This document shows positions 5,581-33,887 of a stretch of 64,000 nucleotides of DNA, piece after piece. The stretch is from the NCBI RefSeq assembly GCF_022846255.1, contig NZ_AP025682.1; one strand, written 5' to 3'. Each line of letters starts with the position of its first letter. Position 1 is the first letter of the stretch. The translations under genes and the position numbers were made by a program. Below the pieces are notes generated by a model. It was given only the letters and a program-made list of their open reading frames with translations, had not been told where the DNA came from and searched no databases. The stretch is from Escherichia coli. Lineage in GTDB: Bacteria > Pseudomonadota > Gammaproteobacteria > Enterobacterales > Enterobacteriaceae.

Positions 5581-6525
5581 ATGCTAACATTTTTTATTGG
5601 CGATTTATTGCCTATTATCGTAATCATGCTGTTGGGTTATTTTAGCGGCAGACGAGAAACTTTTTCAGAAGATCAAGCCCGGGCATTTAATAAACTGGTA
5701 TTAAACTACGCTCTTCCTGCGGCTCTATTTGTTTCTATTACCAGGGCAAACAGGGAAATGATTTTTGCGGACACTCGCCTGACCCTTGTATCACTTGTGG
5801 TTATTGTCGGATGTTTCTTTTTCTCCTGGTTCGGTTGCTACAAATTTTTTAAACGTACCCATGCAGAAGCAGCAGTATGTGCATTAATTGCAGGTTCACC
5901 TACCATTGGATTCCTGGGGTTTGCAGTTCTCGATCCTATTTATGGTGATTCCGTATCAACAGGTTTAGTGGTAGCAATTATTTCTATTATTGTTAACGCA
6001 ATTACTATTCCTATTGGTCTGTATTTGCTGAATCCTTCCTCAGGAGCGGATGGTAAGAAGAATAGTAATCTGAGCGCATTAATTTCTGCGGCAAAGGAGC
6101 CAGTAGTATGGGCACCTGTTCTGGCAACGATCCTGGTGCTGGTTGGGGTAAAAATTCCGGCAGCATGGGACCCAACCTTTAATCTGATTGCGAAGGCTAA
6201 CTCAGGGGTAGCGGTATTCGCTGCGGGGTTGACTCTGGCTGCACATAAATTCGAGTTCAGTGCCGAAATTGCTTATAACACTTTCCTGAAGCTGATTCTG
6301 ATGCCACTGGCGCTGCTTCTCGTCGGTATGGCATGTCATTTGAATAGCGAACATTTGCAGATGATGGTACTGGCAGGCGCATTACCGCCGGCATTCTCCG
6401 GAATCATTATTGCCAGCCGGTTTAATGTCTACACCCGCACTGGTACAGCGTCATTGGCTGTGAGCGTACTGGGTTTTGTCGTCACGGCTCCTTTGTGGAT
6501 TTATGTCAGTCGACTGGTTTCATAA
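5581..6525 (+). CDS. yfdV: AEC-family membrane transporter
   Basis: 314-aa polytopic membrane protein; synteny between oxc and yfdE. Confidence 0.85.
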
Positions 6526-23727: not shown

Positions 23728-23888
23728 ATCGCCTCCCGTTTATTATTTATCTCCTCAGCCAGCCGCTGGGCTTTCAGTGGATTTTGGATAACAGAAAGGC
23801 CGGGAAATACCCAGCCTCGCTTTGTAACGGAGTAGACGAAAGTGATCGCACCTACCCGGATATTATCGTGAGGATGCGTCATCGCCAT
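23700..23888 (-). CDS. lambda orf60a-like hypothetical protein
   Basis: 62 aa; overlaps exo stop as in lambda. Confidence 0.5.
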
Positions 23889-24559: not shown

Positions 24560-25341
24560 GCTGCCACCTTCTGCTCAGTGGCTTTCTGTTTCAGGAATCC
24601 AAGAGCTTTCACTGCTTCGGCCTGTGTCAGTTCTGACGATGCGCGAATGTCGCGGCGAAATATCTGGGAACAGAGCGGCAATAAGTCGTCATCCCATGTT
24701 TTATCCAGGGCAATCAGCAGAGTGTTAATCTCCTGCATGGTTTCATCGTTAACCGGAGTGATGTCGCGTTCCGGCTGACGTTCTGCAGTGTATGCGGTAT
24801 TTTCGACAATGCGCTCGGCTTCATCCTTGTCATAGATACCAGCAAATCCGAAGGCCAGACGGGCACACTGAATCATGGCTTTATGCCGTAACATCCGTTT
24901 GGGATGCGACTGCCACGGTCCGGTGATTTCTCTGCCTTCGCGGGTTTTGAATGGTTCGCGGCGGCATTCATCCATCCACTCGGTAACGCAGATAGGATGA
25001 TTGCGGTCTTTGCGGTAAATCCGGCATGTGCAGGATTCGTTGTCCTGTTCAAAGTCCATGCCGTCAAACTGCTGGTTTTCGTTGATGATGCGGGACCAGC
25101 CATCAACGCCCACCACCGGAACGATGCCGTTCTGCTTATCAGGGAAGGCGTAAATTTCTTTCGTCCACGGATTAAGGCCGTATTGGTTGGCGACGATCAG
25201 CAATGCGATGAACTGCGCATCGCTGGCATCGCCTTTAAATGCTGTCTGGCGAAGAGTGGTGATCAGTTCCTGTGGGTCGACAGAATCCATGCCGACACGT
25301 TCAGCCAGCTTCCCAGCCAGCGTTGCGAGTGCTGTACTCAT
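24556..25341 (-). CDS. bet: recombinase Bet (Red beta)
   Basis: 261 aa, near-identical to lambda Bet as recalled. Confidence 0.97.
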
Positions 25342-25346
25342 CCGTT

Positions 25347-25643
25347 TTATACCTCTAAATCAATATCAACCTGGTGGTGAGCAATGGTTTCAACCATGTA
25401 CCGGATGTGTTCTGCCATGCGCTCCTGAAACTCAACATCGTCATCAAACGCACGGGTAATGGCTTTTTTGCTGGCCCCGTGACGTTGCAAATGATCGATG
25501 CAGAGCGATTCAAACAAATGCTGGGGCAGACCCTTTTCCAGGTCGTCTGCCAGTTCTGCCTCTTTCTCTTCACAGGCGATCTGCTGGTAGTGACGCGCCC
25601 AGCTCTGAGCCTCAAGACGATCCTGAATGTAATAAGCGTTCAT
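25347..25643 (-). CDS. gam: RecBCD inhibitor Gam, short form only
   Basis: 98 aa from [21 protein letters not shown], preceded by AGGAG; the long-form N-terminal extension is not in frame. Confidence 0.9.
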
Positions 25644-25718
25644 GGCTGAACTCCTGAAAATGGCTGTGAAAATATCGCCCGCGAAATGCCAGGCTGATTA
25701 GGAAAACAGGAAAGGGGA

Positions 25719-26009
25719 TTAGTGATTCAGGCCGTTACCGCGTCCGTCGAGAAAAACTTCCACGAGCAAATCACGGGTATAAGTGCGCTCGATGCCGCGA
25801 TGCAGATATAGCCGTCCGCGTAAATTAGCTGATGCAGTCCAGGTACCATCTTTGTGTTTGACCAGCATTCCTGGCATGACCGCACCGCGATTAACGGTCT
25901 GCGTTCCGTAATGTTGATGAACCATAAAAACTCCTGCCCGTAAGCTGGGCTGCTGAACATATAGAGACTTCTGCGCGTATTCAGGCGGTGGATGGCCGCC
26001 GGTTGTCAT
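25719..26009 (-). CDS. hypothetical protein at the start of the early-left operon
   Basis: 96-aa ORF (68 aa from the internal Met with AGGAG RBS); no Arg-rich N-like motif. Confidence 0.35.
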
Positions 26010-26209
26010 AACTAAGCCGCCTCGTTGAAGCGACTAAGGTATGAAATGTTGAGTTGATTTCAGCTGGTCACACCGACGTTCACGCGTCCGTTTCACCCCT
26101 CGCACTCCCCGAAGCCTGCTGAAATTCAAACTGCGGATCTAAGCGGTCATCGCAACGGTGAATCAGGTGGTTGCCGTATCGTTGTGTTGTTGCGATGAAC
26201 TTATTTAAA

Positions 26210-26280
26210 ACTATAGTTGTTTTATCGTCAACAACAAAAGTTGTTTTATTGGTTGTTTTAGATATAACTGGTTGTATTTA
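26210..26280. promoter_or_regulatory. putative OL operator/promoter cluster
   Basis: repeated GTTGTTTTA / GGTTGT half-sites and the dyad AACAAC-AAAA-GTTGTT, sharing the half-site of the cI-cro palindrome. Confidence 0.4.
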
Positions 26281-26520
26281 GGATGGATTTATTTTGTGAC
26301 TTGAATCGCATAGCGATAACTGAAGCGAGGTTATGGTGGTTTTTTTAACGGTGTGTGTGATGAGGGGAGGGCAAAAGAAAACCCGGCACGGTGACCGGGA
26401 TTCTTACGCCGTTAGGTAAAGATATTATTGCGGTGGCTTAATATTACTACCTAGAGCAAAGATAGGAATTAGTTCTTTACTGAATGAGCACAATGCCCAG
26501 TTGATAATTTTTAATTGGTA

Positions 26521-27210
26521 CTACCCATGCTTCCTATATGTCTGCGGCATGCTCCCAATAACCTTACCGAAGATGAACACCCGGTTCATCTCGTCTTTCT
26601 CGATCGGGTCCCACGGTGAGTAGCTTTTGTTATCAGAGATGACCAGCAGCTTATCCTTCATCATTTGCAGGCGCTTTACATGGGCTGTGTCGTCGTACAG
26701 AAACGCATAGATACCATCACCGTCGAAAGATTTAACTGTGATATCAACGAACAGCAGATCACCTGGTTCGATCGTTCCTGACATGCTGTCACCACGCACG
26801 TTAATGATGCGGATATTTTCCGCCTTCCTACCATCGAACATGTGACGAGCATCGTCAAACGAGTACTCAACCGAGCGTAGAACTTCTACAAACTCACGGT
26901 TGATGACTCCCGGCCCAGCACTGACTTCTATATCAAGAACGTCAATCTTAAAGTATTTGGAATGGCTGACAGTTGATAGTATTGGTTGCACTGTACTGTC
27001 TGACATATTTCCAACGCCAGAAGATAACCATTCTGCGCGCACACCCAAAGCGTTCGCGATCTCCACGATTTTAGTTGTTTGATTAGCTTTCCCTGTTTCG
27101 ATTTTCTGAATAGCAGCCTGGCTAACCCCGACCAAATCCCCAAGCGCCTTTTGTGTAAGGCCTCGCGCTAATCTGGCTTCTTTAAGTCTTTCTGAGAGTG
27201 TTGTTTTCAT
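26521..27210 (-). CDS. CI-like prophage repressor (HTH_XRE plus S24 LexA-like peptidase)
   Basis: 229 aa from MKTTLSERLKEARL; C-terminal domain with GDSM motif; divergent from cro-like gene. Confidence 0.85.
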   Translation of the reverse strand: MKTTLSERLKEARLARGLTQKALGDLVGVSQAAIQKIETGKANQTTKIVEIANALGVRAEWLSSGVGNMSDSTVQPILSTVSHSKYFKIDVLDIEVSAGPGVINREFVEVLRSVEYSFDDARHMFDGRKAENIRIINVRGDSMSGTIEPGDLLFVDITVKSFDGDGIYAFLYDDTAHVKRLQMMKDKLLVISDNKSYSPWDPIEKDEMNRVFIFGKVIGSMPQTYRKHG

Positions 27211-27251
27211 AGTCCAAATGTACAACCAAGGTTTTATTCCATCAAACGAAA

Positions 27252-27277
27252 ATGGTTGTTGACTAAAAAACAACCAT
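27252..27277. promoter_or_regulatory. OR-like operator palindrome overlapping putative PR -35 TTGACT
   Basis: perfect inverted repeat ATGGTTGTT-N8-AACAACCAT between the divergent cI-like and cro-like genes. Confidence 0.5.
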
Positions 27278-27315
27278 AGTTTTAATCTTGATTCAAATTA
27301 ACCACGGAGGTTGTT

Positions 27316-27546
27316 ATGAACCCAGCTATCAAAACAGCGATCAATATCGTTGGTTCACAAAAGAAACTGGGCGCTGCTTGCGAAGTTTCACAGCAGGCCG
27401 TCTATAAGTGGCTTCACAACAAAGCAAAGGTATCCCCTGAACATGTCGGCAGCATTGTTACGGCTACTGGTGGAGTAGTGAAGGCATACCAGATTCGCCC
27501 GGATCTTCCGAAGTTGTTTCCACACACCGAAAAGAACGCAGCTTAA
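27316..27546 (+). CDS. Cro-like repressor
   Basis: 76 aa with HTH (QKKLGAACEVSQQAVYKW); GGAGG RBS. Confidence 0.7.
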   Translation: MNPAIKTAINIVGSQKKLGAACEVSQQAVYKWLHNKAKVSPEHVGSIVTATGGVVKAYQIRPDLPKLFPHTEKNAA

Positions 27547-27615
27547 ATTTCCATTTCACGCTCTTTAACAATAAGCAATCAACTTAACAGTCAATTCAAA
27601 CTAAAGGAGTCAATT

Positions 27616-28155
27616 ATGCAACCACTTACATACCAACAGACTAGCGGATTTAGCCCGACTGCGGTGATAAATCGTTCTCAAACAAAACAGGCGCCAGGCC
27701 ACGAAAAAATCCGTGATGCCGTTCGCGCCTGGTCGGCTGCAGATAATCAGGATGTTGTTGCCGCACTCATTGTGAATGAGTATCGGGAGCAGGGCGGCGG
27801 CACCATCGATTTCCCTGATGATGTCAGCCGTGCACGCCAGAAGCTGTTCCGCTTCCTCGATAACAAATTCGATTCTGAAAAATACCGAAATAACGTGCGT
27901 GAACTGACCCCGGCAATTCTGGCGGTACTACCGCTGGAATATCGCGGCCACCTGGTTGAGCAGGATAGCTTCATGGCTCGGTTGGCTGAAATGGATAAGG
28001 AACTCAGTGAGGCAAAGCAGGCGGTCATTCTCAACGCACCACGCCACCAGAAACTGAAGGAAATGAGTGAAGGTATTGTGTCGATGTTTCGTGTGGACCC
28101 GGATCTGGCTGGTCCATTAATGGCGATGGTTACCACCATGCTGGGGGCAATATGA
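27616..28155 (+). CDS. YdaT-like (CII-position) regulatory protein
   Basis: 179 aa; assignment mainly from the racR-ydaS-ydaT-like gene order. Confidence 0.4.
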   Translation: MQPLTYQQTSGFSPTAVINRSQTKQAPGHEKIRDAVRAWSAADNQDVVAALIVNEYREQGGGTIDFPDDVSRARQKLFRFLDNKFDSEKYRNNVRELTPAILAVLPLEYRGHLVEQDSFMARLAEMDKELSEAKQAVILNAPRHQKLKEMSEGIVSMFRVDPDLAGPLMAMVTTMLGAI

Positions 28156-28241
28156 CAGGTTCAGAAATGGCGAAAGCCGGTCTGCGGGAACAGAGCCGAC
28201 TTTCAGGTGCAAATCGTAACGCACTCATTGCGGAAGGAATT

Positions 28242-29171
28242 ATGGCAAACACTGCTGAGATATTCAATTTTCCAGTGCCGGATGAGGCACAAAAGGAGCC
28301 GCGCGTGGCAGATCTCGATGATGGTTATACGCGCATTGCAAATGAGTTGCTGGAAGCTGTGATGCTGGCCGGATTAACACAGCACCAGCTTCTGGTCTTC
28401 CTGGCTGTCATGCGCAAAACATATGGCTTTAATAAAAAACTGGATTGGGTGAGCAACGAGCAACTGTCCGAATTGACCGGGATATTGCCGCACAAGTGTT
28501 CTGCTGCAAAAAGTGTTCTGGTAAAGCGTGGGATTTTGATTCAGAGCGGGCGGAATATCGGTATTAATAATGTGGTCAGTGAATGGGCAACATTACCCGA
28601 ATCAGGTAAGAAAAATAAAGTTTACCTGAAAGAGGTAAATTTACCTGAATCAGGTAAGAAAAGTTTACCCAAATCAGGTAAAGGCGTTTACCCGAATCAG
28701 GTAAACACAAAAGACAAACTAACAAAAGACAATATAAAACCTTTTTCGTCAGAGAATTCTGGCGAATCCTCTGACCAACCAGAAAACGATCTTCCTGTGG
28801 TGAAACCAGATGCTGCAATTCAGAGCGGCAGCAAGTGGGGGACAGCAGAAGACCTGACCGCCGCAGAGTGGATGTTTGACATGGTGAAGACCATCGCGCC
28901 ATCAGCCAGAAAACCGAATTTTGCAGGGTGGGCTAACGATATCCGCCTGATGCGTGAACGTGACGGACGTAACCACCGCGACATGTGCGTGCTGTTCCGC
29001 TGGGCATGCCAGGACAACTTCTGGTCCGGTAACGTGCTGAGTCCGGCCAAACTCCGCGACAAGTGGACCCAGCTCGAAATCAACCGAAACAAGCAACAGG
29101 CTGGCGTGACAGCCGGCAAACCAAAACTCGACCTGACGAACACTGACTGGATTTACGGGGTGGATTTATGA
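28242..29171 (+). CDS. O: replication initiator O
   Basis: lambda O-like N-terminus (VADLDDGY) and C-terminus (DLTNTDWIYGVDL); iterons inside the gene. Confidence 0.9.
   Translation: MANTAEIFNFPVPDEAQKEPRVADLDDGYTRIANELLEAVMLAGLTQHQLLVFLAVMRKTYGFNKKLDWVSNEQLSELTGILPHKCSAAKSVLVKRGILIQSGRNIGINNVVSEWATLPESGKKNKVYLKEVNLPESGKKSLPKSGKGVYPNQVNTKDKLTKDNIKPFSSENSGESSDQPENDLPVVKPDAAIQSGSKWGTAEDLTAAEWMFDMVKTIAPSARKPNFAGWANDIRLMRERDGRNHRDMCVLFRWACQDNFWSGNVLSPAKLRDKWTQLEINRNKQQAGVTAGKPKLDLTNTDWIYGVDL
28592..28745. repeat. replication origin: five 19-bp iterons plus AT-rich tract
   Basis: TTTACC-N7-GGTAAA units at 28592, 28621, 28640, 28664 and 28687, followed by an A-rich tract. Confidence 0.7.
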
Positions 29172-30168: not shown

Positions 30169-30235
30169 TGAAACAGATGAGTTGAGTTCAAACTGTAGTA
30201 CAATTCTCTCCAGTTTGAACAGGAAAGAATATGCT

Positions 30236-30568
30236 ATGAATCCTTATATTTATCTTGGTGGTGCAATACTTGCAGAGGTCATTGGTACAACCTTAATGAA
30301 GTTTTCAGAAGGTTTTACACGGTTATGGCCATCTGTTGGTACAATTATTTGTTATTGTGCATCATTCTGGTTATTAGCTCAGACGCTGGCTTATATTCCT
30401 ACAGGGATTGCTTATGCTATCTGGTCAGGAGTCGGTATTGTCCTGATTAGCTTACTATCATGGGGATTTTTCGGCCAACGGCTGGACCTGCCAGCTATTA
30501 TAGGCATGATGTTGATTTGTGCCGGTGTGTTGGTTATTAATTTATTTTCACGAAGCACACCACATTAA
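30236..30568 (+). CDS. emrE: SMR-family multidrug efflux protein EmrE
   Basis: 110 aa from MNPYIYLGGAILAEVIGTTLMK, 4 TM; matches K-12 DLP12 EmrE as recalled. Confidence 0.9.
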   Translation: MNPYIYLGGAILAEVIGTTLMKFSEGFTRLWPSVGTIICYCASFWLLAQTLAYIPTGIAYAIWSGVGIVLISLLSWGFFGQRLDLPAIIGMMLICAGVLVINLFSRSTPH

Positions 30569-30626
30569 AAATAATTTCTTTTGAATCGAGTGAAATAGGT
30601 TAGCCCGCATAAGTGCGGGCTGCTTT

Positions 30627-31670
30627 TTACAGGTCAGCGTTTGTTTTTTGTTGTTGGGTAGCGGTTTTTATGGGGGTTCCCAGGTTTTTAGTAAACCACT
30701 CAACAACTCTGTTTATAATAATTGGCTGATACCATGTATTATCTCCATGCTCAGCCCCTTCTACCAGAACGTACTCAGCGTTATCGCCGTTCTTCTTCAA
30801 CATCCTGAATAGTTTGGCGCTTTGCTCAGGTGAAACCAGAGTGTCTTTGCTACCATGCATAATAAGAAATGGGGGGTTTACTCCTTTCATATGTCCGATT
30901 GGACTGGCGTTTAGCGCTTTTTCTTTTGACGCTGTTATGGGGGCTCCCGCAAAACTTCTGAATGCAGGGCCATTGATCATTAAGGCTTCGGTTACGGCAG
31001 GAGATCGATGAACCTCCTGCACAGATTCAGGGAACCCCTCGCCAATATTCAACAAGTCAGAAATCCCATAAAGTGTGGCAACTGCCTGAACATCTGCTGA
31101 TTGCTGAAGAAAGTCACCTTTATCAAAGGTTTTGTCACCATTTGTAGTTCCCATCATCTGGGCAAGCCATCCACCGGCAGAGTCACCCAGAACTCCGATT
31201 CTTTGAGGATCAATCCCATAATCGCTGGCATGTTCTCTCAAGTAACGTATTGCAGCTTTCCCATCCTCAACTGGTGCTGGAAATGTATCAGGAATTGTTC
31301 TGTATTCTACAGCGGCCACAACAAAACCAGCTTCAGCCAGAGCCATTCTCATTTCAATAAATTTGTCATGTTCAGAAGACATGAATCCGCCGCCGGGATA
31401 ATAAATAATGGCTGGTTTTAAATCATTTGTTCGTGGGACAAGAACTGACATGTGAAGCTGTCTGACAGAACGAGTTCCTTTTATCTGGGAATAAACAACA
31501 TCACCAATGAGATCGACCTGGTTTCTGGTCGGTGAAACACTAATGATATCTGCACCCGGGGTGTAACCAGGAAGATTAGTCTGGACAGGTGTTGCACAAC
31601 TCCCGACCGACATGGCCATTGACATACCATACAATAGTGTTGCAGATGATAATATCTTGTTAATTTTCAT
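30627..31670 (-). CDS. secreted esterase/lipase lipoprotein, HSL-type alpha/beta hydrolase
   Basis: 347 aa; signal peptide with lipobox SVGSC; oxyanion motif YYPGGGF; nucleophile elbow GDSAGG; C-terminal HGSKD and AEHGDN. Confidence 0.75.
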   Translation of the reverse strand: MKINKILSSATLLYGMSMAMSVGSCATPVQTNLPGYTPGADIISVSPTRNQVDLIGDVVYSQIKGTRSVRQLHMSVLVPRTNDLKPAIIYYPGGGFMSSEHDKFIEMRMALAEAGFVVAAVEYRTIPDTFPAPVEDGKAAIRYLREHASDYGIDPQRIGVLGDSAGGWLAQMMGTTNGDKTFDKGDFLQQSADVQAVATLYGISDLLNIGEGFPESVQEVHRSPAVTEALMINGPAFRSFAGAPITASKEKALNASPIGHMKGVNPPFLIMHGSKDTLVSPEQSAKLFRMLKKNGDNAEYVLVEGAEHGDNTWYQPIIINRVVEWFTKNLGTPIKTATQQQKTNADL

Positions 31671-33480: not shown

Positions 33481-33503
33481 CCTGATTTTTGTGGGGAAAG
33501 TTG

Positions 33504-33887
33504 ATGCGTGATATTCAGATGGTTCTTGAGCGTTGGGGGGCATGGGCGGCTAATAACCACGAGGATGTAACCTGGTCATCCATTGCTGCCGGTTTTAAGG
33601 GATTAATTCCTTCAAAAGTAAAGTCTCGCCCACAATGCTGTGATGATGACGCGATGATTGTTTGTGGATGTATGGCTCGCCTGAAAAAGAACAATAGCTA
33701 TTTGCATGATTTACTAGTGGATTATTATGTCGGGGGTATGACATTTATGTCACTGGCAAGTAAGCATTGTTGCTCTGATGGTTATATCGGGAAAAAGTTA
33801 CAGAAGGCTGAGGGAATAATTGAAGGGATGTTAATGGCATTAGATATACGGTTAGAGATGGATATCGTTGTTACTAAGTCTAATTAA
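33504..33887 (+). CDS. quuD: late-gene antiterminator Q
   Basis: 127 aa from [14 protein letters not shown]; matches DLP12 QuuD as recalled. Confidence 0.85.

Follow-up and report, generated by a model that had tools for sequence, protein, structure and literature searches.

The early-left control region of a common lambda/DLP12-like prophage of Escherichia coli reads as a compact lambdoid arrangement without N, nutL or put

A 64,000-nucleotide stretch of Escherichia coli DNA (contig NZ_AP025682.1 of assembly GCF_022846255.1; hereafter the window) holds a lambda/DLP12-like prophage, and the subject of this work is the interval between its gam and cI-like repressor genes (positions 25644-26520). 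The gam ATG lies at 25643 and the stop codon of the cI-like gene at 26521, leaving 877 bp in between; the initial annotation of this DNA had put the distance at about 870 bp, and its coordinates and open reading frames (ORFs) check out. We read the interval, with a probability of about 0.72, as a compact and ordinary lambdoid early-left control region of a DLP12/lambda-like prophage, whose predicted immunity module is composed of cI, a YdaS-type Cro and a YdaT-type CII. The identity of each part was established, as was the absence of N, nutL and put. In the proposed leftward order, the cI transcript would end at an intrinsic terminator, followed by OL overlapping pL, a family-specific leader of ~150 nt, a shared cassette of hairpins and a mini-ORF, a kil gene of the Rac/phi80 type, and gam-bet-exo of lambda. 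The features are as follows.

26521..27210, minus strand: cI-like repressor, with helix-turn-helix and S24 peptidase domains (Pfam Peptidase_S24 and HTH_3; phrog_4, E = 9e-73).
26372..26399, minus strand: intrinsic terminator ending the cI transcript, CCCGGUCACCGUGCCGGG plus UUUUCUUUUG (terminator scan; hairpin 26399..26382 and a U-tract).
26207..26280: predicted OL operators, with dyads at 26207..26220 and 26231..26244 and GGTTGT half-sites at 26251 and 26270 (OL/OR alignment and dyad counts).
26203..26231, minus strand: putative pL promoter, with -35 TTGACG at 26231..26226, 17 nt, and -10 TTAAAT at 26208..26203 (read from the sequence; 34 nt like pR).
26047..26196, minus strand: family-specific 5' leader of the pL transcript, without N, nut or put (immunity types A and B are homologous from ~26196 on).
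26034..26129, minus strand: arginine-rich reading frame ..SRLRGVRGVKRTRERRCDQLKSTQHFIP*, with candidate starts TTG 26129 or GTG 26096 (GGAG 7 nt before).
25984..26046, minus strand: conserved RNA cassette with CAUACC at 26043..26038, hairpin 1, AUG at 26009 and hairpin 2 (sharing across phages, covariation and fold).
25719..26009, minus strand: 96-aa ORF, with an internal ATG at 25925 preceded by GGAG-N5.
25926..26009, minus strand: N-terminal 28 codons of the 96-aa ORF, the start of a mini-ORF (MTTGGHPPP) fused in frame to kil (frameshifted variants, no codon-position bias).
25719..25925, minus strand: kil, a predicted KilR/phi80-type FtsZ inhibitor of 68 aa (ATG 25925 with a GGAG ribosome-binding site (RBS); phrog_294, PRK11354 and annotated relatives).
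25644..25725, minus strand: lambda-identical kil-gam spacer, with the gam RBS and a weak hairpin at 25694..25677 (lambda alignment, terminator scan).
25347..25643, minus strand: gam, short 98-aa form only (Pfam PF06064 Gam, E = 4.2e-63, residues 1-98 of 98; in-frame stops upstream).
23786..23818, minus strand: hairpin just after exo that we take, from lambda and pKD46, to be the tL3 terminator (exact 33-nt match to lambda 31255..31287; 9-pair stem 23818..23796).

The arrangement recurs in isolated phages. Over its full length the interval is 99.3% identical to PhiR34_1 and 99.0% identical to Turner, whose records both give E. coli as host, and ~95% of it (up to, but not including, cI) is 92-96% identical in PhiR47_2, IdasGreatGrand, 4A7 (genus Bievrevirus), Lambda_4C10 and others. 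In PhiR47_2 and 4A7 cI is displaced by two inserted moron genes, which sit between cI and its terminator. Moreover, the leader region was found in 2221 of 5426 complete E. coli genomes (41%), with copies that are mostly at least 95% identical. Because the same layout is present both in these genomes and in isolated phages (PhiR34_1, Turner, 4A7 and others), the architecture is not a one-off deletion.

Upstream of the 96-aa ORF the initial annotation had seen a single untranslated stretch of 510 bp. This divides into three parts, namely the 3' part of the cI transcript, including the terminator (26520 to ~26372), OL and pL (26300-26197) and the 5' leader of the pL transcript (~26196 to 26010). 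The cI terminator folds at -13.2 kcal/mol (z = -1.9), and in 4A7 and PhiR47_2 it is conserved behind the two inserted genes. The segment from this terminator to OL (26290..26381) is conserved between two immunity types, although OL differs. It includes a perfect palindrome, ATCGC-ATA-GCGAT, at 26305..26317, the arms of which reappear at the 5' end of the pL leader, where 26196..26189 pairs with 26156..26149.

The repeats to the left of this segment were found to match those on the rightward side of the immunity region. GTTGTTTTA occurs three times in the window, always within 26216-26260, and the dyad AACAACAAAAGTTGTT lies at 26230-26245. A 14-bp dyad, ACAAC-N4-GTTGT, occurs seven times in the 64 kb when one mismatch at most is allowed, and five of the seven copies are in OL (26207 and 26231, 24 bp apart) or OR (27222, 27270 and 27301). 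The perfect copy, at 26231, is the dyad singled out by the initial annotation. When the pL side (minus strand, 26185-26300) is aligned with the pR side (plus strand, 27205-27320), 34 nt are nearly identical between the two promoters (GTTGTTGAC-N-AAAACAAC-Y-ATAGTTTTAA). A closer inspection of 4A7, which represents immunity type B, reveals that it has the leader and everything from cII onward in common with the window and that its cI and cro are different. In 4A7 other repeats (of the AACAATAGC type) occupy the same positions in both OL and OR. The repeats in OL and OR therefore change together with the type of repressor, as expected of operators. Taken together, these data point to the GTTGTTTTA/GGTTGT repeats and the dyad being OL operators that overlap pL, and thus DNA elements rather than RNA structure. 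What had been described as structured repeats are ordinary operators, an outcome that the initial annotation had itself named as refuting its proposal. The pL transcript probably starts near 26196, and homology between immunity types A and B begins at about this same position. The promoter scan did not call pL, as its rule demands an A at position 2 of the -10 element.

The 96-aa ORF had been listed as unknown, and kil as lacking; its length, its internal methionine start (68 aa) and the RBS were correctly described. Profile searches identify it as Kil. The 96-aa form matched PHROG 294 ('Kil protein for bacterial septation inhibition') with E = 1e-38, and the 68-aa form matched it end to end (E = 1.3e-37). 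The score against NCBIfam PRK11354 ('FtsZ inhibitor protein', E = 1.8e-17, 63 bits) is under the cut-off of 92, so that the protein is best regarded as a relative of this family and not as a curated equivalog. A Pfam search of the 96-aa ORF returned no match. The 68-aa version is the annotated Kil of 4A7 and HK225. The ORF is thus a Kil of the Rac KilR/phi80 type, a putative FtsZ inhibitor; kil is not missing, the lambda-type gene having been replaced by one of the Rac/phi80 type.

The true product of kil is probably the 68-aa protein starting at ATG 25925. Among 87 distinct sequences of the family, polymorphisms within 25925..25722 are almost exclusively at third codon positions. The 28 extra codons (26009..25926) show no third-position bias, and eight distinct sequences carry a 2-nt deletion there. 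These codons open with ATG ACA ACC GGC GGC CAT CCA CCG CC (MTTGGHPPP), a start which in other phages with the cassette mostly opens a separate mini-ORF of 16-21 aa. Fusion of the mini-ORF in frame to kil by an indel is seen only in the window's family, and some members are frameshifted (38, 39 or 93 aa). The 28-codon extension is therefore not a constrained part of Kil.

Downstream of kil the DNA is that of lambda. The initial annotation had stated that only the 98-aa form of Gam is encoded and that lambda similarity ends abruptly just upstream of its start. Both statements hold: the Pfam match (E = 4e-63) is accompanied by in-frame stops upstream, and lambda identity extends upstream of the Gam ATG for 82-84 nt, as far as the kil stop codon (~25725). 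Only 3 differences from lambda occur in these 82 nt, and the kil-gam spacer is 98.8% identical in about 165 phage records. A phage without N still keeps, in tL3, an N-era terminator in its leftward operon.

Between the leader and kil lies the cassette, which is common to phi80 (355-413 of locus L007), HK225 (2501-2563 of locus L006), HK639, Klebsiella phage KO-TP1 and at least 120 viral contigs. Hairpin 1 is formed by arms at 26035..26027 and 26023..26015, and hairpin 2 (GGCGG 26000..25996 and CCGCC 25988..25984) lies within codons of the mini-ORF. In the predicted fold, hairpin 1 (9-11 bp) is extended by pairing of CAUAC with GUUAUG and so occludes a Shine-Dalgarno-like GAG and the AUG of the mini-ORF. 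Across 24 variants of hairpin 1, 7 of the 11 pairs have changed on both sides. The percentage of paired cells is 92.8%, against 31-57% in slid controls, and none of 500 shuffles matched either the observed percentage or the covariation score. No Rfam match was found for the cassette. It resembles a control element acting on translation or by attenuation, with a polyproline stall motif, and is a separate candidate regulatory RNA found in many lambdoid phages. Directly 5' of CATACC in phi80, HK225, KO-TP1 and most of 141 cassette copies is a GC-rich hairpin with a T-run that ends the upstream gene; this terminator is missing in the window's family (40 copies). We rejected the idea that in other phages the cassette is preceded by an N gene whose arginine motif resembles the present one. 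The genes at that position are very diverse, and the phi80 gene named 'N' by its depositors has no arginine-rich N-terminus. In the cro-cII spacer of 4A7 (6270..6300 of locus L003) a hairpin, GCCGCCTAATCTGCGGC, resembles the stem of the terminator before the phi80 cassette (AGCCGCCTAACCAGCGGC), without its T-run.

The initial annotation was right about the lack of N. An ORF of N size is absent from the stretch between pL and kil, and similarity to N, cIII, ral or sieB was seen in none of the interval's ORFs. PHROG scans of the scanned early ORFs in both arms returned no N-like family, the only antiterminator being Q (33489..33887), and the annotations of relatives list no N-like antiterminator. 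As regards nut, the pL leader contains no boxA within two mismatches, nor, by inspection of the sequence and folds, a 5-bp stem with a GNRA-like loop. An Rfam search of 25300..27700 at a permissive E-value gave chance-level matches only. An exact rrn-type boxA, GCTCTTTAACAA (27560..27571, within CGCTCTTTAACAA at 27559..27571, plus strand), lies 14 nt after the cro stop codon and is the sole exact copy in the 64 kb. It is followed by no boxB hairpin (minimum free energy -4.1 kcal/mol, centroid unpaired) and is missing in immunity type B (4A7). We regard this boxA and the arginine-rich frame of the leader as leads, not findings.

The window was also searched for put, a conserved two-stem RNA with the invariant signature GAACGGC..GUCGG..GGCG..GGA.GA..CAAU, and no match was found. 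Viral contigs supplied 65 distinct put sequences, 20 of which were used to construct a covariance model (R1). RNAalifold missed the published two-stem fold on this alignment, so the model rests mostly on sequence and one covarying stem. Known sites score highly (HK022 putL 90 bits, HK639 putL 78 bits, HK022 putR 68 bits). The best score in the window was 9.7 bits, outside the early region; over 25300..28400, with filters off, the best was 5.4 bits, and 4A7 gave no match.

How Red could be expressed from such a region is suggested by its terminators. On the minus strand from 26196 to 23818 the terminator scan found no strong intrinsic-terminator candidate and only two weak hairpins. Since the terminator that precedes the cassette elsewhere is missing in the window's family, the first strong terminator candidate on the pL transcript is tL3, after exo. 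With only weak hairpins before tL3, kil-gam-bet-exo would form a unit that requires derepression alone. Once the repressor leaves OL, RNA polymerase would read through kil, gam, bet and exo without an antitermination factor, and we infer that expression of these four genes requires nothing more than derepression of pL. The initial annotation had offered two options. The first, Red expression without N-type antitermination, fits this anatomy; the cis-acting RNA that it put forward as a possibility within the second, a different mechanism, found no support.

Beyond this unit the following features bear on the argument.

27316..27546: YdaS-type Cro (Pfam).
27616..28155: YdaT-type CII (Pfam).
30182..30568: qacE/emrE-like moron, between ren and the nin/Q genes.
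30601..30622: strong, probably bidirectional terminator after the moron.
30627..31670, minus strand: convergent esterase gene.
33489..33887: Q antiterminator (PHROG scan).
19260..19460, minus strand: xis-like (excisionase-like) ORF beyond tL3 (PHROG scan).

Several points weigh against expression by derepression alone. Both pL and its start are read from the sequence. Weak terminator-like hairpins do lie on the path, one in kil (25776..25760) and one in the lambda-derived spacer (25694..25677). The latter is lambda sequence, and in pKD46-type plasmids it is read through without N. Rho-dependent termination, which is beyond prediction here, may occur in the 186-270 nt of leader before the first translated ORF. 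The model reaches only kil-gam-bet-exo and does not extend to the xis-like ORF or other genes past tL3. Finally, the moron, its terminator and the esterase gene lie between ren and nin/Q, so that pR transcripts must cross all of them to reach Q. With Q behind a strong terminator and a convergent gene, some antitermination device may exist. In lambda both paths, past tL3 and rightward to Q, would need N. At its left end the prophage arm is flanked by two paralogous phrog_3736 genes (18131..19072 and 20829..21713, plus strand), and no integrase-like match was found among the ORFs scanned beside the xis-like ORF.

These points leave room for an alternative that we consider unlikely, in which the pL leader, either as RNA or by way of the arginine-rich mini-ORF, is an undescribed processive antitermination device acting past tL3, with an unknown counterpart past the moron terminator before Q. 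If true, such a device would join N/nut and put as a third solution, and about 40% of complete E. coli genomes would carry it.

The RNA form of this idea, a shade less likely again, holds that the leader (26047..26196) is a cis-acting antiterminator, put-like in role but unrelated in sequence, which takes pL transcripts past tL3 and later terminators. Its position is suggestive, because in HK639, a phage with a distantly related cro, pL is directly followed by an RNA annotated as putL-like. The leader is also retained from the exact start of the transcript in immunity types A and B, and from ~26161 in a third type. A strong terminator identical to tL3 precedes the remaining leftward genes, including the xis-like ORF, and an author of comparative studies on lambdoid phages has suggested a put-like RNA for another such phage without N (PMC12315714). 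However, with the put model the early region reaches no more than 5.4 bits, against 68-90 bits for known put sites, and no Rfam family matches. The leader folds no better than its shuffles, with z = 0.0 over 187 nt and -0.83 when taken as two halves, and thermodynamic tests of its sub-parts likewise gave nothing beyond shuffles. There is no second copy downstream of pR, although Q is also behind a terminator. The leader has no counterpart in the pR leader apart from a 13-mer, AATCAACTTAACA, just downstream of the cro boxA, which matches 26058..26046 of the pL leader at 12 of 13 positions. Searches with blastn against phages and E. coli genomes, and with tblastn, found no homologues outside the family of >90% identity, and covariation within it is not measurable because the copies are mostly at least 95% identical. 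The suggestion of a cis-acting RNA made in the initial annotation thus met with no Rfam or put match, no folding beyond that of shuffled sequences and no counterpart in the pR leader.

Translation of the arginine-rich frame (GTG 26096 or TTG 26129 to TAG 26034) is doubtful to a greater degree. The frame would then be either what is left of an N gene (its RBS, start codon and arginine-rich motif) or the coding sequence of a small peptide that binds RNA. KRTRERRCDQLK in this frame resembles the lambda N motif TRRRERRAEKQ, and the GTG with its GGAG is replaced by ATG in 7 of the 87 distinct relatives. The TAG at 26036..26034 is CAG in most relatives, giving a single ORF of 125-139 aa that runs into kil, and the four most frequent polymorphisms are synonymous changes at third positions. 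Yet third positions account for only 6 of 12 frequent polymorphic sites, which is not significant, and within the family there are also non-synonymous substitutions, an insertion of 5 nt (TCAAC) and the switch between TAG and CAG. At 21-31 aa the product is too short for the NusA- and polymerase-binding regions of N, the TAG interrupting it here. Tblastn and protein searches found no homologue outside the family. Moreover, there is no boxB-like hairpin after the cro boxA and no boxA in the pL leader, and a GC-rich stretch is expected to contain arginine codons by chance. The inserted TCAAC is an extra unit in the AATCAACTCAAC stretch at the junction of leader and cassette (~26057), occurs in 3 distinct family sequences and looks like slippage at a short direct repeat.

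That the region is the deletion scar of a defective prophage, from which everything from N to kil was lost and whose development is no longer normal, is very improbable: the missing integrase-like match among the ORFs scanned left of the xis-like ORF and the DLP12-type genes typical of cryptic prophages would suit it, but phages PhiR34_1 and Turner are 99.0-99.3% identical over the full length, ~95% of the interval is 92-96% identical in 4A7 and others, and the leader is present in 2221 genomes and three immunity types.

Reading the interval as an ordinary control region places it readily among known systems. As in lambda, the repressor gene is followed by a terminator and the operator dyads, 24 bp apart, overlap pL; gam-bet-exo and tL3 are lambda sequence. 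Unlike lambda, the window is without N, nutL, tL1, ral, sieB, ea10 and cIII, its kil is of the 68-aa KilR type in contrast to the 47-aa Kil of lambda, and it has the short Gam only. With HK022 and HK639 it shares the absence of N, and with HK639 also related cro and cII-like genes and the same cassette before kil. HK022 and HK639, which are without N, use put (PMC9378689; annotation of the HK639 record), an RNA that acts via the beta' zinc-binding domain of RNA polymerase (PMC9378689). The window differs in having no put sequence, and its pL and pR leaders share only the 13-mer with 12 matches. Phage LLS is also reported to be without N, and put use has been suggested for it (PMC12315714). CP-933P/Sp12 and Rac resemble the window in having YdaS as Cro, YdaT as CII and a division inhibitor (kil or dicB) early in the leftward operon. 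CP-933P follows the same repressor/YdaS/YdaT/kil logic, in a paper that is silent on antitermination (PMC8630535). However, its repressor is another one, with the half-site consensus GTTTAGTAA where the window has the dyad ACAAC-N4-GTTGT, and the recombination module of the window, unlike that of CP-933P and Rac, is lambda Red.

An engineered parallel also exists. In pSIM-type pL-gam-bet-exo constructs pL is joined to gam, N and the terminators are removed, and Red depends on inactivation of the repressor alone. Expression of Red by derepression only would follow the same logic, although the natural version retains kil and a leader of 270 nt with the conserved cassette. Literature searches on the mechanism in this phage family, on GevA/GevT and on pSIM design yielded nothing usable.

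For annotation, Kil is the proper name of the ORF and its 68-aa start is to be preferred; the repeats are to be labelled OL operators, and the region should not be described as a deletion scar. It is one more lambdoid region without N, already deposited in several phage genomes, its particular feature being that it is without put too. Most of it resolves into ordinary parts, and the residual interest lies in how tL3 and the terminators before Q are passed. A very common family of lambdoid phages and prophages is without N/nut and put, yet keeps tL3 and a strong moron terminator upstream of Q. This makes it testable how N-less lambdoid phages time their delayed-early and late genes, whether with no antitermination at all or by an unrecognised device.

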